A stretch of DNA of 64,000 nucleotides from Candidatus Woesebacteria bacterium (GCA_016432365.1 CP066686.1:474906-538905), one strand, 5' to 3'; counted from the stretch's first letter, positions 15,005-46,633 are shown. Notes: generated by a model from the sequence alone, not told the origin. A program made the numbers and translations.

Positions 15005-15024
15005 TGCTAAATTATAATGGTTAT

Positions 15025-25121: not shown

Positions 25122-26259
25122 AAAGATTTTGACCTCTTTTTTGATCTGGCGTGTAGCTCTGTTTTTTGTTGCGTTCTTATCGATCTGTTTTTTACCGGTT
25201 TTCGGTGCCAGATTTCCATATGTAGATAAAGTATTGGAAATAACCCATTTGCCTTACTGGGTTTGGGGATTTGGAAATTTCGACGGAGTCCATTATCTTC
25301 GGATTGCGCAGGACGGTTATCTTGCTCAATATTCCCAGGCTTTTTTCCCGCTTTTTCCAATCTTAATTCGATTTTTTTCCATTATTTTTCCAAGGGTGGT
25401 AAATCTCGATACTGTTTTTTTTACCGATCCGGCCTTTTTTTATTCAGGGATAATTCTTTCTAATTTATTTTTTCTGGCAGCGCTTTACATTTTATTTAAG
25501 TTAATTAATATTGATTTTAAAAAGGAGATTGCTTTTTATACCGTTATCTTTCTTTTGGTATTTCCAACTTCGTTTTTCTTTGGCTCTATATATACTGAAA
25601 GTCTGTTTTTGCTACTCACGGTTTCTTCCATCTATTTTATTAGAAAAGGGAATTTCTTTTGGGGAGCAATCTTGATTTCGCTTGCTACCATAACCAGGAT
25701 CACGGGAGTGCTTCTTATACCATTGTATTTAATAGAGGTGTTTCAAAGTAGGAACAAAATTAACTATATTTGGACTTTGATTGCTCCATTGGGGCTTTTT
25801 GCATATATGTATTTTCTAAAATCTGCCTTCAACGACCCGCTCTACTTTTTGACCGCACAACCCATTTTTGGGGCGGGGAGAAGTGGAACAGATTTAATTC
25901 TTCTTCCCCAGGTAATTTATAGATACATAAAAATATTTTTGACGACAAGCATTGTGACCTTACCATTTTTCAATGCATTTATCGAATTTGTATTTACTCT
26001 AATTCCTCTTACAATTTTGATAGTCTTTTTTAAGAAAATGAGATTTAGTTATTGGTTCTTTTCTCTTAGCTCGCTTTTGCTCCCAACCTTGACCGGTACA
26101 TTTTCTTCGATGCCAAGATATGTCCTTATGTCTATGGTGTTTATTTTTCCCTATTTAATTATCCGGTTTAGAAAATATGTCACGCCTTTTATTCTTGCAT
26201 CGATGGTTTTTGGAATTTTGTTGACCATGCTTTTTGTTAGGGGGTATTGGGTAGCTTAA
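25114..26259 (+). CDS. Polytopic membrane protein, PIG-V/GT76-like mannosyltransferase candidate (GT-C), 381 aa
   Basis: ATG at 25114 with GGGAGG RBS. Motif FDGVHYLRIAQDGY...QAFFPLFP resembles the conserved loop of the PIG-V/Gpi18 family. ~9 TM segments. Confidence 0.4.
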   Translation: MFKKILTSFLIWRVALFFVAFLSICFLPVFGARFPYVDKVLEITHLPYWVWGFGNFDGVHYLRIAQDGYLAQYSQAFFPLFPILIRFFSIIFPRVVNLDTVFFTDPAFFYSGIILSNLFFLAALYILFKLINIDFKKEIAFYTVIFLLVFPTSFFFGSIYTESLFLLLTVSSIYFIRKGNFFWGAILISLATITRITGVLLIPLYLIEVFQSRNKINYIWTLIAPLGLFAYMYFLKSAFNDPLYFLTAQPIFGAGRSGTDLILLPQVIYRYIKIFLTTSIVTLPFFNAFIEFVFTLIPLTILIVFFKKMRFSYWFFSLSSLLLPTLTGTFSSMPRYVLMSMVFIFPYLIIRFRKYVTPFILASMVFGILLTMLFVRGYWVA

Positions 26260-27073: not shown

Positions 27074-28348
27074 ATGAAAACACTTAGAAAATTTATTAAT
27101 CACCCCCTTTTTTCAGGCAGCGCCATAATGATTGGCGGCAGCATGACCATTAACGTGGTGAATTATATATACCATCTGGTTATGGGTCGTATTCTTGGCC
27201 CGGTTAATTACGGCGTTCTTGCCAGTCTGTTTTCAATTTTATACATTGTCGGGATCGTACCGTCATCAACTTCAGTTGCCATTGTAAAATTTATTTCTTC
27301 AGCTAAAAATCCCGGAGAAATGATGACAATTTACAATGCACTAAACAAACTCGTTTTCAAATTGGCATCGGCCATATCAATAGTAACAATTATTGCTGCT
27401 CCTTTTATTGCCAACTTTTTACATATTGATAATGTTTTTCTTATTATTCTTATAACCCCGATTTTATTCTTCTCTCTTTTAACCTTAGTTAATCAAGCCA
27501 CTTCGCAGGGTTTATTGAAATTTATGGGATTTGTCTTACCCAATTTTACGTCTTCTCTTGCCAAAATTTGTTTGGGTGTACTATTTGTCATCATGGGTTA
27601 TTCTGTATTCGGTGCAATGATCGGTGTTTTTGCTGGAGGCTTTTTGGCTTTTTTTGTTTCGAAATGGTATATACGTGACATTAAAAAAATAAGGAAGTTT
27701 AAAAAGAAATATAATTTAAAACCATTTTTGAAATATTCACTGCCTGTTTTTTTACAAGCCTTAGCATTCACTTCGATTTTTACAACAGATGTAATTCTTG
27801 TTAAACATTTCTTAACCCCTTTCGATGCCGGAATCTACGCAGCTCTTTCTACGCTTGGTAAAATAGTTTTTTTTGCATCCGCCCCCATTTCTTCTGTGAT
27901 GTTTCCGGTCGTTTCCGGTAGAAGTGCCAAAGGGGAAAAATACTTAGGAATATTTTGGGGTTCGTTTGGCTTGACGCTTGCTGTTTCGGCTGTAGTAGTC
28001 GGTATTTATTATTTCTTCTCGGATTTTGCGATAAATATTCTTTACGGCCCGGCATATTTGTCAGCGTCAATTGATTTGGTCTGGATGGGTCTTTTTATAC
28101 TCGTATACACCCTTGCTTTATTGTTGGTAAATTTTTCACTTTCTCTTGGAAAAACGCGAATAATAGTATTTCCGGTATTGGCTGCGTTTGGACAAGCAAT
28201 ATTGTTATGGATTTTTCATTCAAGTATTTTGGAGGTTATTCAGGTATCGCTTGCCATATGCACCCTCATGCTTTTTGGTGAAGGCGTTTTTTTGGGATAT
28301 AATTCGCGGTATGGCCTGGCCAAAGGAAAACAATATGGAAAAGCCTAA
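27074..28348 (+). CDS. Polysaccharide/oligosaccharide flippase (Wzx-like, MOP superfamily), 424 aa
   Basis: ATG at 27074. ~12 predicted TM segments. Size and hydropathy pattern typical of the polysaccharide biosynthesis protein family. Confidence 0.6.
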   Translation: MKTLRKFINHPLFSGSAIMIGGSMTINVVNYIYHLVMGRILGPVNYGVLASLFSILYIVGIVPSSTSVAIVKFISSAKNPGEMMTIYNALNKLVFKLASAISIVTIIAAPFIANFLHIDNVFLIILITPILFFSLLTLVNQATSQGLLKFMGFVLPNFTSSLAKICLGVLFVIMGYSVFGAMIGVFAGGFLAFFVSKWYIRDIKKIRKFKKKYNLKPFLKYSLPVFLQALAFTSIFTTDVILVKHFLTPFDAGIYAALSTLGKIVFFASAPISSVMFPVVSGRSAKGEKYLGIFWGSFGLTLAVSAVVVGIYYFFSDFAINILYGPAYLSASIDLVWMGLFILVYTLALLLVNFSLSLGKTRIIVFPVLAAFGQAILLWIFHSSILEVIQVSLAICTLMLFGEGVFLGYNSRYGLAKGKQYGKA

Positions 28349-29108: not shown

Positions 29109-30977
29109 ATGTACAGATTCAAGATATTCTCCGTGGCCATCATTAGTCTATTTTTCCTTTTATGTTTTCCTTATAAAGTTTTTGCTGAGGATCCCAATCA
29201 ATTCATTACAGTAGTTAACCCCGTAAGAATCTCTGCGTATGGTGGCAAACCCGCAGAGGGGATGAAAAGCGAATACCAAATTATTCGAAAGAATAAAATT
29301 TCAGCGACCTGGCTAATGACTTATGACGCTATGCAAAACCCGGAAGTTATGTCAGTCGCAAGGGGTATGGACAAAAGTCAGGAGTTTGGAATTTTTGTGG
29401 AGGTTACGCCTACTTTTTCAGAAGATTCAAAAATAACTTATCACAATACAGGTTCTTGGCATCATGCGGCAAGTGTGTTTCTATCGGGATATGCACAAGA
29501 GGACAGGAGAGTATTGATAGATAAAGTTTTTCAAACCTTCAAGGGAAAATTCGGATATTACCCGAAGTCTGTTGGGTCTTGGTGGACTGATGCATACTCT
29601 CTCTCCTACATGAAAGAAAAATATGGAATAATTGCAAACTTAGTTTGTTCTGACCAATATTCAACTGACGGTTATCAAATTTGGGGACAGCCATGGGGCT
29701 TACCTTATTATCCAAGCAAACTTTATTCAGCTGTTCCGCCCTCAACGATTGCGGACAAAATTGATGTTGTGAATTTGCAATGGGCGCCTCGAGACCCCCT
29801 TAATGGTTATACAAGTAGTTTGTATAGCACACAAGACTATTTGGGGGCGCCAATTCGTCAGGATGTGGGCTATTTTCAAAAACTAATTAATATTTATATG
29901 TCTATGAATAAAATAAATGGGTTCGCCCAGGTTACGGTGGGGCTTGAGTCAGATCTTGATCCGGATGGTTATAAAGGGGAATTTGCCAAGCAAATAGAAT
30001 ATGTCAACAGTTTGACAACAAACGGAATAAAAATTCTTACGATGGCCGATTTTTCGACGTGGTATCGTCAAAAATTTACGGATGTGTCACCATCCTACAA
30101 AATTGAATCAAAAGATTTACTTGGAAAGAATATGCAATCATTTTGGTATGGAAGTAGTAAATATAGATTATTCTATATAAAAGATTTTGATAAAAAAGAA
30201 ATCAAAATATTGGATCTTAGGATTTACAATAGCACTTTGAAAGATCCGTACTATGATTCACCCAATTTTCAATTTACCTTATCTGAAAATATTCCGGCTG
30301 TTATAGACACAGTTTCCAATACTGACAATATTTGGATATTACAGGGAGATTTTGAAATTATTACTGACGACGACAATTTTACGATTAAGGGCAGGGGAAT
30401 TAAAGTTCCGGATTTTGTTAAAAAGTCACCGCTAATCGATGTCATTCAAACCGGAAGCGAAGTTAAAATCTCTACGATAGGGGAATTGGTACCGGCGGGC
30501 GGAATTGAAATAAAAGATTTCTCCGCGGAAGCGATACATTTCTTCAGACAGAAATTGGCATTTTTTTATCTCCTGACAGGTCGAGGGTGGAACTATTTGA
30601 CTAAAGTCAGTTATACAATACCCCAAGGTGAAGTCTATGCGCTTTTATATTTGAAATCACAACCGTTTGGCCGTGTTCTGGTTTATGACAACGAGTGTTT
30701 ACAGTGTTCGTGGCACACAGAATTTAAACCGCCGGAGTTTTCAAACAGGAGAGGTTATGTTGGTAAATATTCAGGGAATCCTGTTGTGTATAATAAGTCC
30801 GTATTTGCCGCCAAAACTCAAACCGAGGCAAAGAAAGAGTTTGACAAACTTCATGCAAAGTATGTCTATCTGACTAAATTTGAAGATTATACCGAAAAAC
30901 TTCCTTTTTCTCCGGGCGATCTTAATGTTGAAAAAATTTTTAGTAATGCCAATGCTGAGATTTGGAGAGTAAAATGA
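29109..30977 (+). CDS. Secreted hypothetical protein with cleavable signal peptide, 622 aa
   Basis: ATG at 29109 (TAAATG coupling). N-terminus MYRFKIFSVAIISLFFLLCFPYKVFA-EDP. No TM segments after the signal. No motif I recognise. Confidence 0.5.
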   Translation: MYRFKIFSVAIISLFFLLCFPYKVFAEDPNQFITVVNPVRISAYGGKPAEGMKSEYQIIRKNKISATWLMTYDAMQNPEVMSVARGMDKSQEFGIFVEVTPTFSEDSKITYHNTGSWHHAASVFLSGYAQEDRRVLIDKVFQTFKGKFGYYPKSVGSWWTDAYSLSYMKEKYGIIANLVCSDQYSTDGYQIWGQPWGLPYYPSKLYSAVPPSTIADKIDVVNLQWAPRDPLNGYTSSLYSTQDYLGAPIRQDVGYFQKLINIYMSMNKINGFAQVTVGLESDLDPDGYKGEFAKQIEYVNSLTTNGIKILTMADFSTWYRQKFTDVSPSYKIESKDLLGKNMQSFWYGSSKYRLFYIKDFDKKEIKILDLRIYNSTLKDPYYDSPNFQFTLSENIPAVIDTVSNTDNIWILQGDFEIITDDDNFTIKGRGIKVPDFVKKSPLIDVIQTGSEVKISTIGELVPAGGIEIKDFSAEAIHFFRQKLAFFYLLTGRGWNYLTKVSYTIPQGEVYALLYLKSQPFGRVLVYDNECLQCSWHTEFKPPEFSNRRGYVGKYSGNPVVYNKSVFAAKTQTEAKKEFDKLHAKYVYLTKFEDYTEKLPFSPGDLNVEKIFSNANAEIWRVK

Positions 30978-34620: not shown

Positions 34621-35277
34621 ATGATATCAAAGTCGATTAACACATGGGATCAGACAAAGCATTGGGAAGAAGCCTGTATCGAGACAAGGCGCAATCCAGA
34701 TGAAAGAATAAGAAGACTCCGTTTTTTTAGAATAAAGAAAAAAGAAAAAATTTTAGATTTGGGTTGCGGGGATGGTCTTAATGTCCACATTTTATATAAA
34801 AAAGGTGTTAAAAATATATTCGGTGTTGATATTTCTGATGCACTTATTAAAAGCGCAAAGCGGCTGACACCGAAGGCCAAATTTTATTTAGCCAGCGCTG
34901 AAAAACTTCCGTTTAAAGATGAAACATTCGATGTTGTATTGGTGGATTCGGTTTTCCATCATTTCATGAAGTATCGTAAGGCTTTGGGAGAAATCAATCG
35001 GGTCTTAAAGAAGAAGGGCAGGCTTTGTTTCATAGAACCGCACAAAAGTATTGTAAGAAGTTTGTACGACGCTGTTTGTGAGTTACCAATAAGCAAATAT
35101 ATCCCTTTTCTTAAAAAGCGGCGGATATCGTATTTGGGTGAGATAAAATTTATGAGACATTGGTTGAAAACAGAAGACGATTTTTATGAAACGTTGACAG
35201 AACTGAAGTTTGTAGAAAGATTACGTAAATTAGACATTATGAGTACCATAGGAATATATGAGAAAGCTTCTTATTAA
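34621..35277 (+). CDS. Class I SAM-dependent methyltransferase, 218 aa
   Basis: ATG at 34621. Motif I ILDLGCGDGLNVHIL. DVVLVDSVFHHF. LKKKGRLCF. Confidence 0.7.
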   Translation: MISKSINTWDQTKHWEEACIETRRNPDERIRRLRFFRIKKKEKILDLGCGDGLNVHILYKKGVKNIFGVDISDALIKSAKRLTPKAKFYLASAEKLPFKDETFDVVLVDSVFHHFMKYRKALGEINRVLKKKGRLCFIEPHKSIVRSLYDAVCELPISKYIPFLKKRRISYLGEIKFMRHWLKTEDDFYETLTELKFVERLRKLDIMSTIGIYEKASY

Positions 35278-37411
35278 ATATTTTTTCCCGATTCTGTTTG
35301 TACCGATTTTGTTTTTGTTTTTTGGTGTTGGCACGATTAAAGACTACGGAATTAATTGGGATGAACCTTATCATTTCATGCGGGGTCAGGCGTATTTGCA
35401 CTTTTTTTTGACTGGAGAAAAAGACTATTCAACCTTACCAAAATATCCGAGGGTGAATAGCAACTGTCCATCGTGGGCAAACAACAAATGCAATATATCT
35501 CCTGGCGGCGCCACTGACACAATGCCTTCAAATGTAAAAGGTCCGATTTATGAGGACGCCATAACTGCCCAATATCCACGCAAGCTTTTTTCGTTGTGGC
35601 GCAGCGCTTACCAACACGATACTTATGATTATAATTATATTGTTATAAATGAAGGCGGGCACCCTCCGATTAATGATATTTTGGCTGCCTTGACTAATAC
35701 AATTTTTTACCAAAGGCTTCATTTAATGGGAGACCTAGACTCCCATCATTTATATGAGGTGCTAACGAGTTTCTTAATAGTTTTAGCAGTTGGTGTAGCA
35801 ACTTACCTTAATTATGGAGCCCTACCGGCTTTTGTTGCTTCTTCATCCTTGGCGATCTACCCCTTATTTTTTTCGGAATCACATTTTAATATCAAGGACC
35901 CGCCACTGGCATCTTATTATGGTCTTACTTTGCTTTTTCTTTTCTTTGGTATTACAAGAAAAGAATGGAAATTGGTATTAATATCTTCAATTTTTGCGGG
36001 ACTAGGTTTGGGAACTAAGTTAAACATTGCTTTTGCTCCACTTATTGTTGTTCCATGGCTTTTGTATTTTTTGTTAACAAAATATATTGAAACGAAAAAA
36101 CTATTTTTGTCAAAAGGCACGTTTGTAATGCTGATCTTTTACGCTCCGGTTGTGCTGGGAATAGTTTACGCTTTATGGCCCTATTTATGGTCAGATCCTT
36201 TTAGAAATACAATGCACATACTAGATTATTACAGGCAGATAGGTACCGGCACCGCCGCGGAGATGACTTCATATCTAGTCGGCAAATGGAATACCTATCC
36301 TGTTTTATGGATTGTTTATACTACTCAAGTTCCAATTTTGTTACTGGCACTAATAGGGGTTGTCTATTCTGTTTACTCGACTGTTAAAGGAAAAGACAGT
36401 TTCCCACTACTGGTTTTGCTTTGGTTATTGGTACCAATTTTACGTGTATCTTGGCCGGGAGCGGGGATATATGGAGGTGTTAGACAGCTATTGGAATACG
36501 TACCGGCATTGGCAATTGAGGCAGGCATTGGGGCCTATGCCTTAACTCGGTATGTAAAATATAAAATTGCAATATCAATACTGATTGTAATTTCAATCGT
36601 TTTTTCCATGTATGAAATAGTGATGATACACCCAAATGAGAATGTTTATTTTAACCAGTTGATAGGTGGTCTGTCCGGGGCAAGAAGTAAAAACATTCCT
36701 TACTGGGGGAATACATATGGAAATGCTTACCAGCAGGGGGTGGATTGGCTCAATAAAAATGCGGTGCCTAACGCAAGGTTGGGTTTGGCTATTGCAACAC
36801 AGGCAAACATAAGTAGAAACAGTCTGCGTTCAGATATTGAATATTACAACGGTTCTTGGAGCGGCACCAAAAGAGAAGGGGAATATGAAATAGAACTGGA
36901 TTTTGAGTGGCCGTTTAAATATTGGTATAGTTTTCAATATTATGATAAATATTTGGATCCGGTTTATATATCAAGTGTCGACGGCGTACCGCTTGTTAAG
37001 GTTTGGAAAAATGATATTGAACACACAAAGCCTGCGTTTCGTGAAGAAATAAATTACCAACCGGCTTCGACATTGTTAAGAAAAAACACAGCAAATAAGG
37101 AGTTGTGGATTGACATGGGGAAAGATATTTTTTTGACGGGCTTGAAAATTTGGCATAGTAATGTGGGATGTAGCGTACAGAAGGGGGGATATGTTGCCCT
37201 TTCCACAGATAACAAGACATGGGTGAGGGAGGCAGATCCGCCCGACACAGCACAGGTTCCTCCGACGACTGCTGAGTGGAAAAAGGGAAATTTTCTATTT
37301 TTATTTCCCGGAACAAAGGCTAGATATATTTTATTTGACCCGCAAATGAACGACACCTGTATATTTAAAAACATGAGGATACAAATTTCAGGGCTTAAAA
37401 TTCTACCTTAA
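35258..37411 (+). CDS. PMT/ArnT-like GT-C membrane glycosyltransferase fused to a C-terminal discoidin (F5/8 type C)-like carbohydrate-binding domain, 717 aa
   Basis: ATG at 35258. First-loop NWDEPYHFMRGQAY. ~12 TM segments. C-terminal ~150 aa soluble with WIDMGKDIFLTGLKIW...ARYILFDP...MRIQISGLKI, resembling the discoidin-domain pattern. Confidence 0.5.
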   Translation: MRKLLIKYFFPILFVPILFLFFGVGTIKDYGINWDEPYHFMRGQAYLHFFLTGEKDYSTLPKYPRVNSNCPSWANNKCNISPGGATDTMPSNVKGPIYEDAITAQYPRKLFSLWRSAYQHDTYDYNYIVINEGGHPPINDILAALTNTIFYQRLHLMGDLDSHHLYEVLTSFLIVLAVGVATYLNYGALPAFVASSSLAIYPLFFSESHFNIKDPPLASYYGLTLLFLFFGITRKEWKLVLISSIFAGLGLGTKLNIAFAPLIVVPWLLYFLLTKYIETKKLFLSKGTFVMLIFYAPVVLGIVYALWPYLWSDPFRNTMHILDYYRQIGTGTAAEMTSYLVGKWNTYPVLWIVYTTQVPILLLALIGVVYSVYSTVKGKDSFPLLVLLWLLVPILRVSWPGAGIYGGVRQLLEYVPALAIEAGIGAYALTRYVKYKIAISILIVISIVFSMYEIVMIHPNENVYFNQLIGGLSGARSKNIPYWGNTYGNAYQQGVDWLNKNAVPNARLGLAIATQANISRNSLRSDIEYYNGSWSGTKREGEYEIELDFEWPFKYWYSFQYYDKYLDPVYISSVDGVPLVKVWKNDIEHTKPAFREEINYQPASTLLRKNTANKELWIDMGKDIFLTGLKIWHSNVGCSVQKGGYVALSTDNKTWVREADPPDTAQVPPTTAEWKKGNFLFLFPGTKARYILFDPQMNDTCIFKNMRIQISGLKILP

Positions 37412-38352
37412 GGGCTTGTTTCTTCAATATATTTATTTTTTGACAGATCTTTCTGGTTTAAGTTGACGATCATTTCTGCGACCAACCCGGTAGATATAAG
37501 TTGTACACCGATTATCATCAAGAGCATTCCCAAAAACAATAGTGGTTGGCGAAATTGGATTGAACCGGTTGTGACTCTCAGATAGGTAATATAAATACCG
37601 ATTAAGAAACCGATAAAAAACGAAGCTATGCCCCAAAATCCAAAAAAATGGCCGGGGCGTCTAATGTACCCTGTTAGAAAAACTATAGTTATCAAATCGA
37701 GTACACCTTTAATATTTCTTTCTATACCAAATTTACTTTTACCAAATTTTCTGGGTTTGTGAGATACCACGATTTCTGTAACTTTAAAATTTTGATGTGC
37801 GACAAGAACTGGTATGAATTTGTATAGTTCTCCATAAAGATGAATATTTGTCAAAACTCTTTTTCTGTAGGCTTTAAAGCCACAATTCAAGTCATGAATT
37901 GTTACGCCCGTAAGCTTTCTTGTTAGTAGGTTGCCAATTTTTGAAGGTATAGTTTTACTGAGGGGGTCATATCTTTTCTTTTTCCAACCAGAGACCAGGT
38001 CGTAACCCTCCTCAATTTTTTTTACGAACTTTGGTATTTCCCGCGGGTCATCCTGCAGATCGGCATCCATTGTGATCACTATTTCGCCGCGGCTGGCATC
38101 AAAACCACTTTGTAATGCTATCGATTTTCCGAAATTCCCTCGATGTTTTATAATCTTAATATTCTTATTGTTGCGGCTGAGCTTTTTTGCGATTTCAAAA
38201 GTGGAATCCGTCGAACCGTCGTCTACAAAAATAATCTCAAAAGATTTACGAAGTTTTTTCATCTCAACAACAACTTGAGAATATAGCGACGAAATCGTTT
38301 TTTCTTCGTCCTTAGCAGGAATAATAAATGAAACTTGCGGAACTTTTGTCAT
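37408..38352 (-). CDS. Polyprenyl-phosphate sugar synthase, GT2 with C-terminal TM helices (GtrB/CsbB/DPM1-like), 314 aa
   Basis: ATG (CAT at 38350..38352). Motif SFIIPAKDEEKTI...IIFVDDGSTDST...TMDADLQDDP. Two C-terminal TM helices (FFGFWGIASFFIGFLIGIYI, LFLGMLLMIIGVQLISTGL). Confidence 0.8.
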   Translation of the reverse strand: MTKVPQVSFIIPAKDEEKTISSLYSQVVVEMKKLRKSFEIIFVDDGSTDSTFEIAKKLSRNNKNIKIIKHRGNFGKSIALQSGFDASRGEIVITMDADLQDDPREIPKFVKKIEEGYDLVSGWKKKRYDPLSKTIPSKIGNLLTRKLTGVTIHDLNCGFKAYRKRVLTNIHLYGELYKFIPVLVAHQNFKVTEIVVSHKPRKFGKSKFGIERNIKGVLDLITIVFLTGYIRRPGHFFGFWGIASFFIGFLIGIYITYLRVTTGSIQFRQPLLFLGMLLMIIGVQLISTGLVAEMIVNLNQKDLSKNKYIEETSP

Positions 38353-38852
38353 TACTTAAGTTTTTCGATCAAAATATTCATTGTATCAATGTCTTGTTGA
38401 GACAAGAGCCAGTAGGGAGTATTGGCAGGGAAGTTGTCCCTCATCTTTCCAAGGATTGGCTTGTATTTTTCAAACAAACTGATAATTTCTGACTTTTTTT
38501 CTTGAGATTCTTTGACAGAACTTTCAGCAAGGACCCCCGCCGCAAAAGCCAGCCTTTGCGAGGCGTCCGAGATTTGTGACTGCTCCTTATTCTCTACAAG
38601 GCTTACGTATTCGGACACTCTTCTTTCAAGTAGCCATTTTCTGTACTCATACTTTGAATTTTTGGAAAATTTAAACTTTTCTGATACTTTCTCCTTTGCC
38701 CTTTTGAACAAATAGCCGGAACTCCCTGGAAGCGTTTTTTGGGGAGTTAATCCAAAAGATTCCGGAGACTCCGCAAAAACGGCTGGGGCGATTGACAAGA
38801 AGAGAACTAAGACCGAAAATACTGCCAAAAGACGCAACTTGAAAGATGTCAT
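38352..38852 (-). CDS. Small secreted hypothetical protein, 166 aa
   Basis: ATG (CAT at 38850..38852). Signal peptide MTSFKLRLLAVFSVLVLFLSIAPAVFA. Charged, helical-looking remainder. Confidence 0.45.
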   Translation of the reverse strand: MTSFKLRLLAVFSVLVLFLSIAPAVFAESPESFGLTPQKTLPGSSGYLFKRAKEKVSEKFKFSKNSKYEYRKWLLERRVSEYVSLVENKEQSQISDASQRLAFAAGVLAESSVKESQEKKSEIISLFEKYKPILGKMRDNFPANTPYWLLSQQDIDTMNILIEKLK

Positions 38853-38906
38853 ACAAGGGGATTATATTCCAGTATGGTATCATTTTACAATAGCAGGGGA
38901 AAAAGC

Positions 38907-39707
38907 ATGATTTCAATTATAGTAACTACAAAAAACGAATCTCTACATTTACCAAAATTTTTGGAAAGTCTTAGGCGGCAAACATACCGAGATTTTGAGG
39001 TAATTGTAGTTGATAACGAATCAACCGATGATACCAAAGATATCGCCAGGAAGTTTGAAGCTAGAGTTTTTAATAAAGGACCGGAAAGGTCCGCCCAAAG
39101 AAACTATGGAGTGAAAATGTCTCGGGGTCAGTATGTTCTTGTTTTGGACGCAGACATGACCTTGTCGCCCAGGGTCTTGGAAGATTGTTTCGGTGTCATT
39201 ACAAAAGACCCCGAAGTTGAGGCGATCACTGTTCCGGAGAAATCTTTTGGTACCGGCTTTTGGACAAAATTTAAAGTTTTTGAAAGGGAATTTTATGTAG
39301 GAGATGAAACGATCGAGGCTCCTAGATTTTTCAAAAAATCCACTTTTAAAAAGTTTAACGGCTATGATATGAGCATCACGGGCCCGGAGGATTTCGATTT
39401 GCCGCTGAGAATGCGAAAAGAAGGAATCAAAATTGGCCGAATTAAAAGTTTTATATACCACGATGAAGGCAAATTCTCCCCATTTAGGTCAGCCAAAAAG
39501 AAATACTATTACGCTGCTCACGCTAGAGGGTTTTTGAAAAAGCACCCAGAGCAAATTTTAGGTCTTGGCAATTTGGTTTTAAGGCCGGTCTTTTTTAAAA
39601 AATGGAGAAAGATAGTTTCACATCCATTTTTGTCTTTGGGAATGGTAACAGTAAAAGTAATTGAGGGTATAGGTGCAATGCTTGGCATTCTATATTCAAG
39701 TATTTAA
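38907..39707 (+). CDS. Family 2 glycosyltransferase, ~266 aa
   Basis: Track ORF begins at 38874, only 21 bp from the divergent neighbour. ATG at 38907 preceded by AGGGGA gives MISIIVTTKNESLHL...VIVVDNESTDDT...LDADM. Confidence 0.75.
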   Translation: MISIIVTTKNESLHLPKFLESLRRQTYRDFEVIVVDNESTDDTKDIARKFEARVFNKGPERSAQRNYGVKMSRGQYVLVLDADMTLSPRVLEDCFGVITKDPEVEAITVPEKSFGTGFWTKFKVFEREFYVGDETIEAPRFFKKSTFKKFNGYDMSITGPEDFDLPLRMRKEGIKIGRIKSFIYHDEGKFSPFRSAKKKYYYAAHARGFLKKHPEQILGLGNLVLRPVFFKKWRKIVSHPFLSLGMVTVKVIEGIGAMLGILYSSI

Positions 39708-39790: not shown

Positions 39791-40462
39791 ATGTCTGCGA
39801 TGATTAGAATGCAGGTCACAGTTATGTTTAAAGAATTGTTGGATTACGAAGATGAATTTCACCTCCTTTATTTAGGGAAACTCACTAAACGCGAAGGCTG
39901 GAAAAACGTTAGAGAACATGGCGTTACCCAACTACTTGGTGCAAAAGTGTTGGGAGCCTTGCTTGGATTAACAGACGGAGAGCGAAGAGCCTTGGAGTCG
40001 GTTGCAATTATTCATGATTGGGAAAAAAGACTGGATAATTTTCCTGATGATTTTTCGCCAGCTGAGAAAGAAAAAATAGAGCTTTATTACAAAAAAATCA
40101 AACCCGACGAAAGATTGATGGCTGCAACCGGTCCGGATTTTTTGGAAAAAGTTTTATATGCAGAAGTTTCAATATTAGAATTTCTCCAGTTCTATTTAGA
40201 TGATATAACCATGGGGTCTGAGATTGTTCCTTTTGACAAGCGCATCGAAGAAGTCTCTACAAGGAAACAGTATTTAAATGATGACGGCGATTTAACACAA
40301 AGATTAGGTGGAAGAAAATACTGGGAACTTGAAATGGAAGTCGGACATTTGGTGGAGAATATGATTTTCGATTCTTTGAAAGCTCGTGGTGTTGAAATTG
40401 GCAGTCCAAAAGATATACCCTATCTTATAAAGAACAAAATTATAGAACTATCAAATGTTTAA
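39791..40462 (+). CDS. Hypothetical cytoplasmic protein, possible HD-domain phosphohydrolase, ~223 aa
   Basis: Track ORF begins at TTG 39782. First ATG is 39791. Motif H...HD (VREHG...VAIIHDWEK) suggests an HD fold. Weak. Confidence 0.35.
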   Translation: MSAMIRMQVTVMFKELLDYEDEFHLLYLGKLTKREGWKNVREHGVTQLLGAKVLGALLGLTDGERRALESVAIIHDWEKRLDNFPDDFSPAEKEKIELYYKKIKPDERLMAATGPDFLEKVLYAEVSILEFLQFYLDDITMGSEIVPFDKRIEEVSTRKQYLNDDGDLTQRLGGRKYWELEMEVGHLVENMIFDSLKARGVEIGSPKDIPYLIKNKIIELSNV

Positions 40463-41576
40463 CCACATTCCAGTTAACGAACCCGTTTTGTCTGAGGACT
40501 CGAAGATATTTGTAAATAAGGCACTTGATAGTGGATGGATATCCTCATCAGGCAATTATGTAAAGGAGCTAGAGGAAAAGTTTGCTTCTTATATTGGTAT
40601 GAAATACGGAATAGCCGTTTGTAACGGTACGGCCGCACTTCATGTCGCGTTATTATCATTAGGGGTTGGCCCCGGAGATGAGGTAATTGTTCCCGCTTTT
40701 ACAATGGGTGCAACATGGCTTGCAGTGTTATATACAGGAGCGAAACCGGTTTTCGTCGATTGTGAACCTGATACTTTTAATATTGATGTTAAACAAATCG
40801 AAAATAAAATTACAAAAAGAACAAAGGTAATCATTCCGGTTCACATTTATGGGCACGCGGCAGAGATGTCTGAAATTATGAAAATTGCAGGTAGACATAA
40901 AACTATGGTTTTAGAAGACGCAGCGGAAGCTTGCGGCGGGGAATACAAGGGGAAAAAATGTGGTTCTTTCGGAGAAATAAACGCATTTAGTTTTTATGCC
41001 AACAAAATAGTCACGACAGGCGAAGGGGGAATGATGGTAACTAATAACGAGGTCTTAGCAACAAAAGCAAGAATGTTTAGAGATTTGCACCACTCGGCAG
41101 CCAAACGGTTTATCCATGATGGTATCGGGTTTAATTATAGAATGACTAACCTACAAGGCGCGCTGGGGTGCGGGGAAATAGCCCATATCGACGAGTATCT
41201 TCTTAAAAAGCAGTATATGGCCTCCCTATACGATATCCTGCTTAAAGATGTCCCAGGAATCAGATTGCCAAAAACTAAAAGCTATGTAAAAAACGTTTAC
41301 TGGATGTATGGGATTTTGCTTGACGAAGAAAAATTTGGAATGAGTAAGAATAGGCTTCGTGAGGAACTTAGCAATAAAGGGATTGAGACAAGGGACTTCT
41401 TTTATTCGCCTAACAACCAACCCGTCTTGAAAAAATATCTGAAAAACAACGATAAGTTTGTTAATACGGAAAATATTGAAAGAAATGGTTTATATATTCC
41501 TTCTGGGTTGGCACTAACTGATAAACAAATGATTAGTGTGGCATCTGCAATAAAAAGTTTGTACGTTGCAAAATAG
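40455..41576 (+). CDS. DegT/DnrJ/EryC1/StrS-family PLP-dependent sugar aminotransferase, 373 aa
   Basis: ATG at 40455. Motifs GTAALHVALLSLGVGPGDEVIVP and FSFYANKIVTTGEGGMM (PLP lysine). Confidence 0.85.
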   Translation: MFNHIPVNEPVLSEDSKIFVNKALDSGWISSSGNYVKELEEKFASYIGMKYGIAVCNGTAALHVALLSLGVGPGDEVIVPAFTMGATWLAVLYTGAKPVFVDCEPDTFNIDVKQIENKITKRTKVIIPVHIYGHAAEMSEIMKIAGRHKTMVLEDAAEACGGEYKGKKCGSFGEINAFSFYANKIVTTGEGGMMVTNNEVLATKARMFRDLHHSAAKRFIHDGIGFNYRMTNLQGALGCGEIAHIDEYLLKKQYMASLYDILLKDVPGIRLPKTKSYVKNVYWMYGILLDEEKFGMSKNRLREELSNKGIETRDFFYSPNNQPVLKKYLKNNDKFVNTENIERNGLYIPSGLALTDKQMISVASAIKSLYVAK

Positions 41577-41642
41577 CCCCTTTGCACGATTTTACATGGA
41601 GACTCAAATTATTATCGATACATTCCTAGTGGCGATTAATTC

Positions 41643-41651
41643 TGGTATAAT
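41643..41651 (+). promoter_or_regulatory. Extended -10 promoter element TGgTATAAT upstream of the PseB-like dehydratase gene
   Basis: Perfect TGnTATAAT at 41643..41651, 14 nt before ATG 41666. No SD, which implies a very short leader. Confidence 0.4.
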
Positions 41652-41665
41652 CGTGACAACCAAAC

Positions 41666-42664
41666 ATGACAAAAATTCTTAAGGGGAAACGAATATTAGT
41701 TACGGGAGGCACGGGATCCTTTGGACGCATGTTCATCGGTGAAATTCTGAAGTACGAACCCAAAGAAATAATTGTTTTTAGCAGAGACGAAGACAAACAG
41801 GGTATTATGAGGTTGGAATATAAGGATAAACTGGGTATTCGTTTTGTGTTGGGGGACATAAGAGATTTTAGAAGTGTTCGTGAGGCCGTGCGAGGCGTGG
41901 ATATCATCGTTCATGCGGCTGCTCTAAAGTGGATCACAGAGGTTGAATATAATGTTTGGGAAGGTGTAAAAACTAACGTAATTGGCGCAGAAAACATAAT
42001 TGAAGCGGCCAGAGATGAGGGTGTAGAAAAAGTTGTCGCACTTTCGACTGACAAAGCCGTTGAACCGATTAATGCTTACGGAATGGCAAAAGCGCTTCAG
42101 GAGCGACTTATTACAACTGCAAATCTCTACGATGTGGGCAACACCGTTTTTGTTTCTACAAGGTATGGGAATGTTCTTGGATCAAGAGGGTCTGTAGTGC
42201 CACATTTTAAGAAATTAATTTCGGAAGGCAAGCCATTAACTATTACAGACACCGGGATGACCCGTTTCATTCTAACTCTCCAAAAAAGCGTTGAGTTGGT
42301 ATTAACGGCAATGACAGAAGGTGTAGGTGGAGAGGTGTTTGTAAGAAAAATGCCGGGCCATTCCATCATAGATCTTGCCGAAGTCCTTCTGGAGGCCAAC
42401 GGTAAAAATACTAAGAATATTATTAATATGGGAATCCGTCCCGGTGAAAAAATTCATGAAACACTGATTAGTCCGGCAGAAAGTGTGAGAACAGTTGAAT
42501 TTGGAGATTACTATGTAATTTTACCCCAGATTTCTATCCCGGCGGTAGAGAAAAAATATTCAGGTAAAAAGACGTTAAAAGAATTCAGATACGCCTCAGA
42601 CACCACTGAACAAATCGGAAAAAAAGAACTCCGTTCGTTATTAGAGAAAGAGGGTTGGATATGA
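41666..42664 (+). CDS. UDP-HexNAc 4,6-dehydratase, PseB/FlaA1/CapD (PglF-like) family, 332 aa
   Basis: ATG at 41666. Motifs KRILVTGGTGSFG, STDKAV and YGMAKAL. Confidence 0.8.
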   Translation: MTKILKGKRILVTGGTGSFGRMFIGEILKYEPKEIIVFSRDEDKQGIMRLEYKDKLGIRFVLGDIRDFRSVREAVRGVDIIVHAAALKWITEVEYNVWEGVKTNVIGAENIIEAARDEGVEKVVALSTDKAVEPINAYGMAKALQERLITTANLYDVGNTVFVSTRYGNVLGSRGSVVPHFKKLISEGKPLTITDTGMTRFILTLQKSVELVLTAMTEGVGGEVFVRKMPGHSIIDLAEVLLEANGKNTKNIINMGIRPGEKIHETLISPAESVRTVEFGDYYVILPQISIPAVEKKYSGKKTLKEFRYASDTTEQIGKKELRSLLEKEGWI

Positions 42665-42693
42665 AGCTCCCCAACACAATCGGCAGGGTATCT

Positions 42694-42790
42694 TCTCCCA
42701 GCGCTTTGTCGGGAGCGGAATCCCTCCGAAGCGAAACCTCTTCGCTTTCACCCTCAGAGGCTTTAAGCCCGGGGTATTCGCGAAGGGGGA
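42694..42790 (+). repeat. GC-rich palindromic element (copy B) between the PseB-like gene and ATG 42796, sharing the GAAACCTC core and CCTCC...GAGG architecture with copy A
   Basis: CTCCC-N11-GGGAG (42695..42715). GAAGCGAA-ACCTC-TTCGCTTT (42728..42748). CCTCC.../...GAGG flanks. High local GC. Confidence 0.4.
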
Positions 42791-42795
42791 TAAAA

Positions 42796-43671
42796 ATGAA
42801 AATTGGTATAACCGGTGCAACAGGGTTCATGGGCAGGCATATTATTAATAAACTTCAAGGTGAGGGTCACTCAATTAGTGTTCTTGCAATAGAAGAAAAA
42901 CCTACACTACCCAAGGATATAAAGTGGGTACATGGCAATTTAGTTAGCGGGGTAGGCATAGCGAAGTTTTTAAAGGATGTTGAAGTGGTTATTCATTTAG
43001 CGGGAAGAAATTTGCCGCCGGAAGAGGAATTAATTAAAGATAACGTTTTGGCTACCCGCAATCTGGTGATAGAAATGTTAAAGCACCCAATAAAACAACT
43101 CATCTTTACTTCATCGGTAGCTGTTTATGGAAAAGACAAAAAAAGTAAATTTAAGGAAACCGATGAATGTTTCCCGAACACCGAATACGGATTGACAAAA
43201 TATCTCGCTGAAAAGGAGGTTCAATATTGGGTTACAAAAACCGGCAATCCTGCAACTATTTTCCGCCCCTTTAACGTTTATGGTCCTGGAAATTCTAAGG
43301 GGATAATTTACACATTTTACTCAAACATAAAAAACGATGGCAAGGTGATTATTTACGGTGATGGTAAACAAGAAAGAGATTATTTGTATGTCGGTGACAT
43401 AGTTGAAGCATTTTCTACAGCAATACGAATCAAGAAAAGGGGAATTTTCAACTTAGGGGCGGCTAAAAAATATTCGGTTTTAGAAGTGCTTGAAGTTTTC
43501 AAAAAGGTGATGAGGAGAGATATCGAAGTTGACTTTACCTCTACGGAGGAGGGTAAGGTCTTCAACATTAACCAGGATTTGTCCTTGGCGAAAAAAGAAC
43601 TCAAGTGGGAGGCGAAAACTTCATTTGAGAAGGGTTTAAGAAAAACAATTGAATGGTATGAAAAGCAGTAA
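42796..43671 (+). CDS. NAD-dependent epimerase/dehydratase (extended SDR), 291 aa from ATG 42796 (alternative ATGA-coupled start at 42661 would add a 45-aa Ser/Pro-rich N-terminal extension)
   Basis: AAGGGGGA RBS then ATG 42796 gives MKIGITGATGFMGRHI. Catalytic YGLTK. The frame is open back to 42655 (TTG) and 42661 (ATG overlapping the upstream TGA). Confidence 0.7.
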   Translation: MKIGITGATGFMGRHIINKLQGEGHSISVLAIEEKPTLPKDIKWVHGNLVSGVGIAKFLKDVEVVIHLAGRNLPPEEELIKDNVLATRNLVIEMLKHPIKQLIFTSSVAVYGKDKKSKFKETDECFPNTEYGLTKYLAEKEVQYWVTKTGNPATIFRPFNVYGPGNSKGIIYTFYSNIKNDGKVIIYGDGKQERDYLYVGDIVEAFSTAIRIKKRGIFNLGAAKKYSVLEVLEVFKKVMRRDIEVDFTSTEEGKVFNINQDLSLAKKELKWEAKTSFEKGLRKTIEWYEKQ

Positions 43672-44734
43672 GAACTTTCAAAGGGGTAGAATTCTTCTTG
43701 TAAGCCACGTTTACCACACTGAATCAGGGCCTGTATACGGACCTTTTAATGTAATTAAAGATTTTCTAAACACAAACAAAAGGTCGTTTCAAACGATCGA
43801 GTATCCGTTAGTCTCCCGTACACCGCTTATCATAAAATCTGTTTTTGAAACGGTTAAAACAGTAATGACAGCTGCTGTTTACAAACCGAAAATTTTTATT
43901 GGAATTGACCCCTTGAATGCGTTCGCTGGTGTGATTCTAGAGAGGTTTGGTTTAGTGAAGAAGGTGGTTTTTTATTGCGTTGATTATACACCAACCAGAT
44001 TTAAAAATAAGATTTTAAATAGCGTTTATCTTGGTATTGACAAGTTTGTATCAAAAAATTCCGATGAGGTCTGGAACGTTTCTTCGAGAATTGTCGAAGT
44101 TAGAAAAAAACAAGGTATATCTGATTCGAAAATAAAGTTTGTTCCAAATGCACCGATTTTTGGAAGTTGCCCAAGATTACCTGCTGAGAAAGTGAATAGA
44201 AATAATATAGTTATGGTCGCCGGACTGACCCATGGTCCCGTGTTGGATCTTGTTCTGAAAGCCTTTAAGAACGTTGTGGCTAAATTTTCCAAGGCAAGAC
44301 TTTTAATAATTGGGACCGGACCTTATCAAGATAAATTGAGACTGAAAACCAAGAAAATGGGACTTTCTGAAAATATAAAATTCTCGGGACAATTACCAAA
44401 CAAAAATTTATTACACGAGGTTTCAAAATCAGGTATAGCCTTAGCAATTTACACCTTCTCGGATGATTACAGCTGGATTTATTATGGAGATTCAAAAAAG
44501 GCGAGAGAATATTTGGCTTGCGGTACACCGGTCATTATTACTGATGTGGTCGCTACCGCGGGGGATGTGAGAGACTACAACGCCGGCTTGGTAATTAAAC
44601 CGAATTCAGAAAGCCTGGAGCAGGCGCTAAGTAAAATTTTAGGAGATAAAAATTATTGGTTGAAATGTAGGAAAAACGCAGCCAAATTGGGCAAAGATTA
44701 CGATATCGACTCGATATTAGGCAAAATAATCTAA
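43658..44734 (+). CDS. GT4-family glycosyltransferase, ~358 aa
   Basis: Track ORF begins at TTG 43649. ATG at 43658. C-terminal ...SKKAREYLACGTPVIITDV... GT-B pattern. Confidence 0.7.
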   Translation: MKSSKNFQRGRILLVSHVYHTESGPVYGPFNVIKDFLNTNKRSFQTIEYPLVSRTPLIIKSVFETVKTVMTAAVYKPKIFIGIDPLNAFAGVILERFGLVKKVVFYCVDYTPTRFKNKILNSVYLGIDKFVSKNSDEVWNVSSRIVEVRKKQGISDSKIKFVPNAPIFGSCPRLPAEKVNRNNIVMVAGLTHGPVLDLVLKAFKNVVAKFSKARLLIIGTGPYQDKLRLKTKKMGLSENIKFSGQLPNKNLLHEVSKSGIALAIYTFSDDYSWIYYGDSKKAREYLACGTPVIITDVVATAGDVRDYNAGLVIKPNSESLEQALSKILGDKNYWLKCRKNAAKLGKDYDIDSILGKII

Positions 44735-45669
44735 TTTTCTCGTTTGAGGTAATCTTCAATTGTTTTTTTTAATCCTGTTTTGAAATCTGTTTTGGCTTTA
44801 AACCCAAATTCTTTTATAGCTTTACCTACATACAATCTTCTTCTTGGCTGACCGTCCGGTTTTGATTTATCGAATATAATGCTGCCTTTAAAACCAATCA
44901 TTTTTGAGATTGTTCTTGCCAGTTCTTTAATGGATATCTCAAACCCCGACCCCAAGTTTATAGGGTCAGGTTTATTGTATTTTTCGCATGCCTTTAATAT
45001 TCCCTCTGCGGCGTCATCCACGTAAAGAAATTCACGGGTGGGTTTCCCGGATCCCCAAATTACAACTTTCTTGGATTTGGTATTTCTTGCTTCGGCAAAC
45101 TTCTTAATAAGTGCTGGGATTACATGCGAAGAGGTGGGATCAAAGTTGTCTCCCGGTCCGTACATATTTACAGGTAGAAGGTAGATGGAATTAAACCCAT
45201 ACTGTTTTCTATACGCTTGAGATTGAACCAAAAGCATTTTTTTAGCTAGGCCGTAGGGCGCGTTTGTTTCCTCAGGGTACCCATCCCAAAGATGCTCTTC
45301 CTTAAAAGGAACAGGTGTAAATTTTGGATATGCGCAGATTGTACCTATCAAAACGACCTTTTGTACATTGCAGGCCTTCGCTGCACGCATAATGTTGATA
45401 CCCATTATGATGTTGTCGTCAAAAAGTTCTGCTGGTTTACTTTGGTTGTATCCAATTCCACCTACATTTCCTGCAAGATGGATTACAATATCTGCATTTT
45501 TAAATGCTTTAAGGCAGGATCGATAATCTCTTAAATCGGTTTTTTTGTGGTTAGGAATCACTATTTTTGCCGGTTTTAACTTTAAAAGTTTTTTGACAAG
45601 GTGGATTCCCAGGAAGCCACTTCCTCCGGTTACTACAACGATTTTACTTTTCCAAAAATTCTTCATCAT
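44731..45669 (-). CDS. fcl: GDP-L-fucose synthase (GDP-4-keto-6-deoxy-D-mannose 3,5-epimerase/4-reductase)
   Basis: ATG (CAT at 45667..45669). Motif [13 protein letters not shown]. Long collinear match to E. coli Fcl as recalled ([24 protein letters not shown] vs [39 protein letters not shown] vs WGSGTPMREFLHVDD). Confidence 0.85.
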   Translation of the reverse strand: [312 protein letters not shown]

Positions 45670-45673
45670 TGGA

Positions 45674-46633
45674 TTATTTTACCTTATTTTTGAAGTTGAT
45701 CTTTTCTGAAATAAGGTAGATTGGTCTATTGATAATTTCTTTATGCAAAAAACTGACATATATGGCGACGATTCCCATACTTGCTATGACAAAACCGATT
45801 AAAAGTGTGTTAAACACAACTAATACGATTGTGGGGGAAAAATATCTAATATTTTTTTCGTAAAGTATTACTGAAATCATGCAAATAAGACATATTAGTG
45901 AGGTGATAATAAGAAAAAGGCCGAAATACAGAATATATTTTAAAGGTTTAGTTGAAAGTGAAAGAATTCCGGTTTTGGCAAACTCCAGATTTCTCCCGAA
46001 GTTATACCAGGCCTTCCCCGCAGTTCTCCTTCTTGCTACATAGTCCACTACGGCAGTGGGATACCCCATCCAGGAGACCATCCCTCTCAGGAATCTGTTT
46101 TTTTCTTTCATGGTTTGAAGCCGTTGGTAGACCTCTTTATCAAGCAATTTAAAGTCCGCCATTCCTTCTTTGATTTGTGTGTCTGAAAGCGCATTAGTAA
46201 AAGCATAAAAAAATTTAGACATTAGATTTTTAAAGAAGGGAATATCTTCGGTTTCCACCCGTCTTGTGTGTACAATTTTTGCGCCCTTCAACCACTTGGA
46301 TATTAATTTCGGAAATAAACTTGGAGGATGTTGTAGGTCCGAATCAAGGTAGATGACAGCATCACCTTTTGCTGCATCAATTCCGGCGGTTATTGCTATT
46401 TGTTGTCCAAAATTACGTGTTAATCTTATGCCCTTTACTTTTTTATTGTGTTTGGCGATCCGCGATATTTCGGGCCATGTACCATCCGAGCTTCCATCGT
46501 CAACAATAATACATTCGTAATTAAATCGACCAATTTTTTGCATTACACCGTTCACCTCGTCTGCCAATTTTGCCAAACTTTTTTCTTCGTTGTGGGCCGG
46601 GGTTACAATGGTGATAAGTTTTCGTTTTGTCAC
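45674..46633 (-). CDS. Polyprenyl-phosphate sugar synthase, GT2 with C-terminal TM helices (GtrB/CsbB-like), 319 aa
   Basis: GTG start (plus-strand CAC 46631..46633). Motif ITIVTPAHNEEKSL...IIVDDGSSDGT...LDSDLQHPP. Two C-terminal TM helices. Confidence 0.75.
   Translation of the reverse strand: MTKRKLITIVTPAHNEEKSLAKLADEVNGVMQKIGRFNYECIIVDDGSSDGTWPEISRIAKHNKKVKGIRLTRNFGQQIAITAGIDAAKGDAVIYLDSDLQHPPSLFPKLISKWLKGAKIVHTRRVETEDIPFFKNLMSKFFYAFTNALSDTQIKEGMADFKLLDKEVYQRLQTMKEKNRFLRGMVSWMGYPTAVVDYVARRRTAGKAWYNFGRNLEFAKTGILSLSTKPLKYILYFGLFLIITSLICLICMISVILYEKNIRYFSPTIVLVVFNTLLIGFVIASMGIVAIYVSFLHKEIINRPIYLISEKINFKNKVK

Follow-up and report, generated by a model that had tools for sequence, protein, structure and literature searches.

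A Microgenomates family of GT-C glycosyltransferases ending in a trimmed discoidin-like domain

Glycosyltransferases of the GT-C fold that carry an appended carbohydrate-binding module (CBM) outside the membrane have already been described. EmbA, EmbB, EmbC and AftD combine the GT-C fold and a soluble alpha/beta domain with periplasmic CBMs that bind the acceptor glycan; AftD has three such modules, one of which its authors compared to the structure PDB 4A45. Likewise, ORF12 of Citrobacter youngae, the founding member of GT136, is part of a three-component O-antigen ribofuranosylation system and has a C-terminal CBM that binds the O-polysaccharide in its unmodified form and is not needed for catalysis (PMC11127046). 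Here we describe a gene of a Candidatus Woesebacteria bacterium, located at 35258..37411 (+) of a 64,000-nucleotide stretch (GCA_016432365.1 CP066686.1:474906-538905, hereafter the window), that encodes a GT-C glycosyltransferase with a C-terminal discoidin-like domain. The original prediction for this gene, made from the DNA sequence, considered the combination to be undescribed; the principle, however, is the one published for the Emb proteins, AftD and ORF12. What we describe is therefore an uncharacterised Microgenomates family using a known GT-C plus CBM principle, which will not surprise a specialist, and our literature search, which paired discoidin-type domains and CBM32 with GT-C or PMT_2 enzymes and Patescibacteria with GT39, turned up no publication on the family or on PMT_2-type GT-C enzymes with a discoidin tail. 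Our preferred reading, which we consider moderately probable, is that the protein would be an extracytoplasmic decorating enzyme dependent on a lipid-linked sugar, with the tail binding the surface acceptor.

The open reading frame (ORF) is present exactly as predicted, with an ATG start and 717 codons followed by a stop, and genes called independently on a public Logan assembly include one with the identical 717-aa product. The PMT/ArnT-like N-terminus that had been claimed along with it is borne out by the motif NWDEPYHFMRGQAY at residues 33-46 (35354..35395, +) and by the Pfam family PMT_2 (PF13231), which matches residues 135-299 with 33.6 bits for a gathering cut-off of 26.1 and is also found in 55 of the 58 relatives used for the homologue alignment (43-87% identity to the window protein). 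Homologues are numerous, forming at least 768 clusters at 90% identity, and the best 120 cover 89-100% of the query. No NCBIfam model matches the protein, a phmmer search of PDB sequences with the protein gave noise only and a search with the family profile gave nothing at E<=1, indicating a family without a characterised or solved close relative.

We modelled the full-length protein with AlphaFold2 (AF2) from the 58-sequence alignment and obtained a mean predicted local distance difference test score (pLDDT) of 92.9 and a predicted template modelling score (pTM) of 0.92. The model consists of a helical part at residues 1-457 (35258..36628, +), a mixed alpha/beta part from residue 458 to about 590 and an all-beta part at residues 597-717. 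Compared with the PDB by Foldseek, the full model matches STT3, AglB, PglB, ArnT (5ezm, 5f15), AftD and EmbA/B/C (6w98, 7bvc, 7bvh), AftA and ALG9/ALG12 with E values of 3e-8 to 1e-4; further, local matches are to neuropilin b1b2, factor VIII, BT_411 and the discoidin domain of DDR2. As the global template modelling scores (TM-scores) to the solved GT-C enzymes are 0.3-0.4, the protein represents a distinct GT-C family and not an orthologue of any matched enzyme. On the basis of the Pfam match and the predicted fold, the protein is a GT-C glycosyltransferase.

A GT-C fold, a soluble alpha/beta domain and appended modules outside the membrane are also found in AftD and the Emb proteins. Nevertheless, those enzymes are 1000-1400 aa long, carry several CBMs, have in the case of AftD extra transmembrane (TM) helices after the soluble part and use a decaprenyl-phosphate arabinose donor, whereas the present protein, which has no detectable sequence similarity to them, ends in a single trimmed discoidin domain.

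The first extracytoplasmic loop of the membrane domain contains a conserved motif. Right after TM helix 1, the aspartate D35 (in NWDEP) is invariant across the 58 aligned homologues, and N33, W34, H39, F40, R42, Q44 and Y46 are each conserved in at least 90% of them. By analogy with known GT-C enzymes, among them the PMT and GT-C_A enzymes with their DE motif, Asp35 is the putative catalytic residue.

This DE-type motif after TM1, together with a weak PMT/PMT_2 Pfam relationship, is shared with the eukaryotic and actinobacterial PMTs of GT39. Furthermore, relatives of the window protein are named 'glycosyltransferase family 39' by NCBI, a name that probably reflects the generic PMT_2 model, and PF02366 (PMT) is matched by 9 of the 58 relatives. 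Both the names and these matches would fit a different function, namely a PMT/Pgf-like protein O-glycosyltransferase whose tail would bind a protein in place of a glycan, for example an S-layer protein, a pilin or the secreted DUF5667 protein encoded nearby, an alternative that we hold to be unlikely. Against it, neither PF02366 nor MIR is matched by the protein itself in a Pfam scan, and the 50 best Foldseek matches of the full model do not include the structures of Pmt1/Pmt2. In eukaryotic PMTs the lumenal MIR domain is lectin-like, a beta-trefoil inserted in a loop; PMTs thus resemble the present protein in bearing a sugar-binding-type module on a GT-C enzyme and differ from it in the fold and the position of that module, which here is discoidin-like and C-terminal.

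The architecture behind the membrane domain differs somewhat from the one first proposed, with about 12 TM segments and a soluble, discoidin-like stretch of the last ~150 aa. The protein is indeed polytopic, but the model has about 11 TM helices, and the last one ends at residue 457. The soluble C-terminal region is accordingly about 260 aa long; the beta-sandwich is confirmed as its last ~120 aa, and it is preceded by the alpha/beta domain. This domain (residues 458-590, 36629..37027, +, with the stretches HPNENVYFNQ... and IPYWGN.YGN) is the most conserved part of the protein, with a mean column conservation of 0.74 versus 0.59 for the membrane part and many invariant residues within 458-585, and it corresponds to the soluble GT-C domain described for AftD, PglB and ArnT in the AftD paper. 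Because STT3, AglB and PglB are the best fold matches, we considered IPYWGNTYG, about 25 residues past the last TM helix, as a version of the oligosaccharyltransferase WWDYG motif; we rejected this, since the WWDYG aspartate has no counterpart and no residue-level structural alignment supports it.

The distribution of charges gives the orientation of the protein. Using the helices of the AF2 model as TM segments, the family-mean number of lysines and arginines in short loops is 15.2 on the side assigned as cytoplasmic versus 4.6 on the side assigned as outside, which by the positive-inside rule indicates a cytoplasmic N-terminus, about 11 TM helices and an outside C-terminus. The four cysteines of the protein all lie in segments predicted to be outside. 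Furthermore, the AftD paper summarises that every solved GT-C enzyme with a soluble C-terminal domain has it on the periplasmic or lumenal side. The charge bias, the homology to GT-C enzymes and an invariant cysteine pair in the tail thus all favour the extracytoplasmic tail that had been proposed, as a prediction.

The identity of the tail (37046..37408, +) was addressed at the level of both fold and sequence. When residues 588-717 are modelled separately, AF2 again predicts a confident beta-sandwich (pLDDT 91.1, pTM 0.85), for which Foldseek finds 96 PDB matches at E<=1e-3. All of the 50 best are discoidin, F5/8 type C or CBM32 domains, with query-normalised TM-scores of 0.39-0.56, mostly 0.5-0.56, so that the expected sandwich and its discoidin-like character are both found. 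The matches comprise neuropilin b1, the C2 domains of factor V/VIII and of lactadherin, DDR2, BT_411 and CBM32s of Clostridium perfringens; the CBM32 structures among them are 4lpl, 4a42, 2w1q and 5xnr. Of these, 4a42 (CpGH89 CBM32-6) is the sister entry of 4A45, which we take to be a CBM32 as well.

At the sequence level, the single protein and its family give different answers. The tail of the window protein scores 18.4-19.1 bits with PF00754, below the gathering score of 28.2, and is by the Pfam rule no member when taken as a single sequence; a scan of the full-length protein does not list PF00754. By contrast, 32 of the 42 family tails match PF00754 at E<=0.01 (best 1e-7) and 15 of the 42 match its sister family PF22633, with no other Pfam family recurring, and PF00754 is also matched by 21 of the 58 full-length members. 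In line with this, public databases attach PF00754 and PF13231 together to some family members (P0085, P0101). The Pfam profile suggested as a check for the discoidin claim thus fails on the protein alone and succeeds on the family, and the tail motifs originally quoted as a discoidin signature are present and are canonical discoidin motifs.

A profile built from the tails was also searched against 1.84 billion representative proteins, where it found 170 proteins at E<=1e-3. Most of these belong to the GT-C family itself or are apparent fragments of it; the rest include long multidomain proteins. All nine of the outgroup proteins that we tested are multi-copy F5/8-type-C proteins with PF00754 scores of 65-283 bits, retrieved at library-wide E values of 1e-6 to 1e-4, and several of them carry GH98, GH141 or sialate-esterase domains. 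Such an association with glycoside hydrolases and esterases corresponds to a CBM32-type usage and argues against a tail that reads a protein acceptor.

We also considered that the tail might be unrelated to discoidin and resemble it by chance, through the generic similarity of beta-sandwiches. The sub-threshold Pfam score of the single protein and the failure of the family profile to find a PDB sequence would be compatible with this, as would the search of PDB sequences with the tail profile, which gave six weak matches with E values of 0.023 (factor V) and above, none of them significant. Similarly, aligning the tail alignment by hhalign to one approximate factor VIII C2 sequence gave a probability of 5.8%. 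In this last alignment, however, three motifs are in register, with LWIDMGKDIFLTG paired to WLQVDFQKTMKVTG, ALSTDNKTW to SSSQDGHQW and ARYILFDPQ to TRYLRIHPQ of this template. Given also that five of the six weak PDB sequence matches and all of the 50 best structural matches are discoidin or CBM32 domains, that PF22633 is the sole competitor of PF00754 in the family and that the tail profile retrieves true F5/8-C proteins, a chance resemblance is largely refuted and in our view extremely improbable. From sequence profiles and the predicted fold, we conclude that the tail is a trimmed discoidin/CBM32-like beta-sandwich, homologous to F5/8-C domains.

The tail shares with the discoidin, F5/8-C and CBM32 domains (neuropilin b1, factor V/VIII C2, DDR2 and the Clostridium perfringens CBM32s) the fold, the three motifs and homology at the profile level. 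It differs from them in length, with about 120 aa instead of the ~150-160 aa of a typical discoidin domain, and in its cysteines. Animal discoidin domains typically carry a disulfide that joins the N- and C-termini of the domain; here, the sole cysteines of the tail are C638 and C701, which are conserved in 58 of the 58 sequences and lie in two of the three long loops. In the hhalign register, we presume these two loops to be equivalent to two of the ligand-binding 'spikes' of factor VIII C2.

Next, conservation within the tail bears on what the sandwich may do. The strongly conserved residues (D619, T627, S649, W655, R689) are mostly generic fold motifs, while the long loops carry conserved residues that are specific to the family (H633, C638, G644, Q666, P668, C701). 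The former would suit a sandwich with a structural or scaffolding role, stabilising the alpha/beta domain or contacting the membrane or the lipid-linked substrate, with no specific ligand. The whole-chain pTM, which suggests that the tail is rigidly packed on the enzyme, the purely structural beta-sandwich that AftD also has and the lipid-binding C2-type discoidin domains among the tail matches (compare factor V/VIII C2, which binds phospholipid) would fit such a role as well. On the other hand, the family-specific residues in the three long loops and the invariant cysteine pair speak against it, the tail loops are by sequence without hydrophobic spikes, and some family members presumably function without the tail (see below). 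We find a purely structural role quite improbable.

To describe the distribution of the tail, we used 93 family GT-Cs from GTDB representative genomes, a set that also underlies the synteny counts given below. The hosts are Woese-, Davies-, Levy-, Blackburn-, Roizman-, Gottesman- and Chisholmbacteria, and a small number of records carry the label Berkelbacteria or Saccharimonadales. Within the reach of these searches, the family is confined almost entirely to Microgenomates and related Patescibacteria. Records with the Microgenomates-type gene are often titled 'uncultured Gammaproteobacteria bacterium' (L008, L009, L012 and others, as well as L003, which is 87% identical), titles that are probably generic or mistaken labels from automated submissions of metagenome-assembled genomes.

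A hidden Markov model (HMM) of the tail matches 79 of the 93 genes. On inspection, four genes that it misses (L061, L071, L074, L076) carry no different module but a shorter form of this domain in which both cysteines are kept. Six of the 93 genes are truncated: contig ends cut four of them, and L047 and L072 are otherwise incomplete. Finally, four complete genes stop just past the alpha/beta domain: L027 (568 aa), L040 (571 aa), L059 and L066. With the tail present in nearly all members and absent from four complete genes, it is a nearly constant but separable accessory module. Within the window, the gene at 35258-37411 encodes the only protein that the tail HMM matches. Genomes often carry several members of the family, and a number of them contain two or three discoidin-tailed paralogues, some in direct tandem (L011 3987-8046, L048 150-3550, L056, L060, L002 2292-4340 and 8001-10130), which suggests a diversification of acceptor or linkage specificity.

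The genes that surround the GT-C gene provide a candidate for the source of its donor. Convergent to it, at 37408..38352 (-), lies a GT2 gene (Pfam Glycos_transf_2) whose stop codon overlaps that of the GT-C gene by 4 nt. Its product matches over its full length the PDB sequences of ArnC (E 9e-46), GtrB sll0501 (1.6e-29) and the Pyrococcus Dol-P-Man synthase DPMS (3e-19) and has C-terminal TM helices, with hydrophobic segments at residues 237-296. The best NCBIfam models are ArnC (183 versus 529 bits), PgfS and AglJ, all below their equivalog cut-offs. Judged by these similarities, the GT2 is likely a polyprenyl-phosphate-monosaccharide synthase making the donor. An ArnC-like GT2 homologue is found within 3 kb of 49 of the 93 family GT-Cs, and in 18 of the 93 it is convergent and at most 200 nt downstream. 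From this conserved adjacency, we infer a polyprenyl-phosphate-linked donor for the GT-C enzyme. A polyprenyl-phosphate GT2 encoded together with a GT-C fits a three-component extracytoplasmic glycosylation system of the Gtr, Arn or GT136 type.

Systems of the ArnT/ArnC, Gtr, GacI-GacL and CsbB-YfhO type share this division of labour, in which an ArnC/GtrB-type GT2 makes the polyprenyl-phosphate monosaccharide and a PMT_2/ArnT-like GT-C transfers it outside. To our knowledge, ArnT has no appended beta-sandwich, and the same holds for GtrC-type enzymes as far as we know. Lipid A, the acceptor of ArnT, is absent from Patescibacteria, and the window GT2, as its NCBIfam score shows, is far below the ArnC equivalog cut-off. 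Citrobacter ORF12 is also comparable: the catalytic acidic residue of this GT-C enzyme lies in its first periplasmic loop, a beta-rich CBM forms its C-terminus and a partner enzyme charges polyprenyl phosphate, and its dispensable CBM parallels the tail-less members of the present family. It differs in that its CBM, by its published description, is immunoglobulin-like instead of discoidin-like, its donor synthase depends on phosphoribosyl pyrophosphate (PRPP) and is not an ArnC/GtrB-type GT2, and a flippase is encoded beside it, for which we found no counterpart at the window gene. Its GT-C family is also a different one, and its host is Gram-negative as opposed to Patescibacteria.

Under our preferred reading, the convergent ArnC/GtrB-like GT2 would act at the inner membrane face, where it would charge polyprenyl phosphate with one sugar taken from a nucleotide sugar. 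This sugar, which the products of neighbouring aminotransferase, dehydratase and methyltransferase genes may have tailored, would then be flipped in its lipid-linked form to the outer face. There, the GT-C enzyme would transfer it to a cell-surface acceptor by means of the loop with the invariant Asp35 and the conserved alpha/beta domain. The sandwich, anchored close to the outer face, would be an accessory module for acceptor recognition that, by analogy, most likely binds the glycan being decorated. It would thereby raise the local substrate concentration or set the site of modification, as do the CBMs of EmbC, AftD and Citrobacter ORF12.

A number of observations weigh against this reading. 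The TM-scores of the tail to known discoidin domains stay near 0.5 because the domain is trimmed, with ~120 aa compared to ~155. No cysteine is found near residue 597 or 717, and the canonical terminal disulfide of discoidin domains is thus absent. The conserved tail residues being fold motifs, conservation singles out no sugar site, and the best fold matches include peptide-, collagen- and lipid-binding discoidin domains beside CBM32; that the tail would bind carbohydrate is plausible. Concerning the genes around it, only 49 of the 93 family members have the GT2 neighbour within 3 kb, and we found no GtrA- or ArnE/F-type flippase gene beside the GT-C gene or beside a second GT2 gene of the window (described below).

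Further genes next to the GT-C gene are conserved as well. Upstream, at 34621..35277 (+), an S-adenosylmethionine-dependent methyltransferase gene (Pfam Methyltransf_11, 91.7 bits) overlaps the start of the GT-C gene with its 3′ end by 20 nt, and its product is likely a co-translated operon partner. A homologue of this methyltransferase is located within 3 kb of 34 of the 93 family GT-Cs; in many of the nearest orthologous loci its gene immediately precedes the GT-C gene. The genes upstream of the GT-C gene comprise this methyltransferase, a WbuC-like cupin, a GT4 and another methyltransferase. On the other side, the convergent GT2 gene is followed at 38352..38852 (-) by a gene for a 166-aa DUF5667 protein (Pfam, 30.5 bits) that is secreted or anchored through an N-terminal hydrophobic segment (TM-like at residues 8-26), and at 38874..39707 (+) by a gene for a soluble GT2 glycosyltransferase (Pfam Glycos_transf_2). 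The DUF5667 gene adjoins the GT2 gene in the same position in seven other loci (L001, L002, L003, L005, L006, L031, L049). The whole block of GT-C, convergent GT2, DUF5667 and GT2 recurs in the independent metagenomic contigs L001 and L002 at about 50% GT-C identity.

A gene at 29109-30977 (+) opens the conserved block upstream and is present in L001 and L002; it encodes 622 aa with one N-terminal TM segment and a weak DUF3863 match (20.9 bits, below the cut-off).

The DUF5667 protein could be an accessory factor or even the acceptor. Its conservation beside the closest orthologues is a point in favour of a protein acceptor, as are the NCBIfam near-matches of the convergent GT2, which include PgfS, by name a Streptococcus enzyme, and AglJ, named as an S-layer glycoprotein glycosyltransferase; PgfS is part of a protein-glycosylation system. 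The peptide and collagen binders at the top of the tail fold matches, neuropilin b1 and DDR2, point in the same direction. Set against these, the gene lies in an island of polysaccharide type that encodes a Wzx-like flippase alongside numerous GT4 and GT2 enzymes, and this, next to the arguments from the tail relatives and the PMT structures, leads us to keep to an acceptor that would be a surface glycan.

This island comprises a set of sugar-nucleotide tailoring genes (40455..45669), identified through Pfam and NCBIfam, with every NCBIfam match below its equivalog cut-off: a LegC/PseC-like aminotransferase (40455-41576), a PseB-like UDP-GlcNAc 4,6-dehydratase (41666-42664), an epimerase/dehydratase (42655-43671), a GT4 (43649-44734) and an Fcl-like reductase (44731-45669, -). 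The Wzx-type flippase is encoded at 27074-28348, and an Asn-synthase-like amidotransferase is found in the island beside the GT4 and GT2 genes. Directly after the tailoring genes, at 45674-46633 (-), lies a second GtrB/PgfS-like GT2 of the polyprenyl-phosphate type, 319 aa long and with C-terminal TM segments, whose closest NCBIfam model is PgfS (236.8 bits, below the cut-off). As this second GT2 is 27% identical to the convergent one, the island probably supplies two or more distinct donors in the form of lipid-linked monosaccharides. Concerning small membrane proteins that might serve as flippases, no small multi-TM ORF occurs within about 25 kb of the GT-C gene, and a 111-aa ORF beside the second GT2 lacks both hydrophobic character and a Pfam match.

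At least 14 further genes of the window have Pfam matches in the GT-C superfamily, and these are dense in 960-22513, 25114-26259 and 53022-54647. They include a YfhO gene (960-3284), PTPS_related/PMT_2 genes (3262-4917, 4889-6493, 11411-13165), GT87/PIG-M-like genes (6490-7842, 9597-10766), PMT_2 genes (15004-16443, 16433-17902, 17918-19588, 19578-20942, 20939-22513), a PIG-V-like gene (25114-26259) and a gene with a weak PMT_2 match (53022-54647).

Two polytopic proteins within this array, with 8-10 TM-like segments, have no Pfam match at E<=1e-3, one of 548 aa at 7839-9485 (+) and one of 634 aa at 13100-15004 (-); either could be a polymerase, a ligase or a divergent GT-C. Elsewhere in the window, a gene at 59144-62641 (+) encodes 1165 aa without a Pfam match, composed of about nine N-terminal TM segments, a soluble region of about 680 aa and a C-terminal TM segment. 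Its end is overlapped by a gene at 62631-62999 (+) for a protein of 122 aa, the size of the GtrA type, with four TM-like segments and no Pfam match.

The density of GT-C genes can also be combined with the protein-directed possibilities for the tail. In a system specific to the candidate phyla radiation (CPR), the tail would read a non-carbohydrate target such as an S-layer, pilus or DUF5667 protein, and the at least 14 GT-C paralogues would make a diversified surface glycoprotein coat. We would rate this as decidedly improbable. If true, it would be relevant to the episymbiotic lifestyle of these bacteria and would show GT-C enzymes recognising their acceptors in a new way.

Taken together, the discoidin-tailed family overturns nothing that is known. 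It adds, after Emb/AftD and the enterobacterial GT136, a third independent example of a GT-C enzyme that recruited a beta-sandwich binding module, and such a third example supports the tethering of the acceptor polymer as a general solution for glycosyl transfer outside the membrane. Because the family is large and well conserved and its model is of high confidence, it offers a tractable entry point, with a tail module that could be used for finding the acceptor. For the biology of the host, the dense GT-C array means that extracytoplasmic glycosylation takes up a very large fraction of this small CPR genome; the presence of at least 14 GT-C paralogues in a 64-kb window, despite the tiny genomes of Patescibacteria, suggests that surface glycans are of great importance to these organisms.

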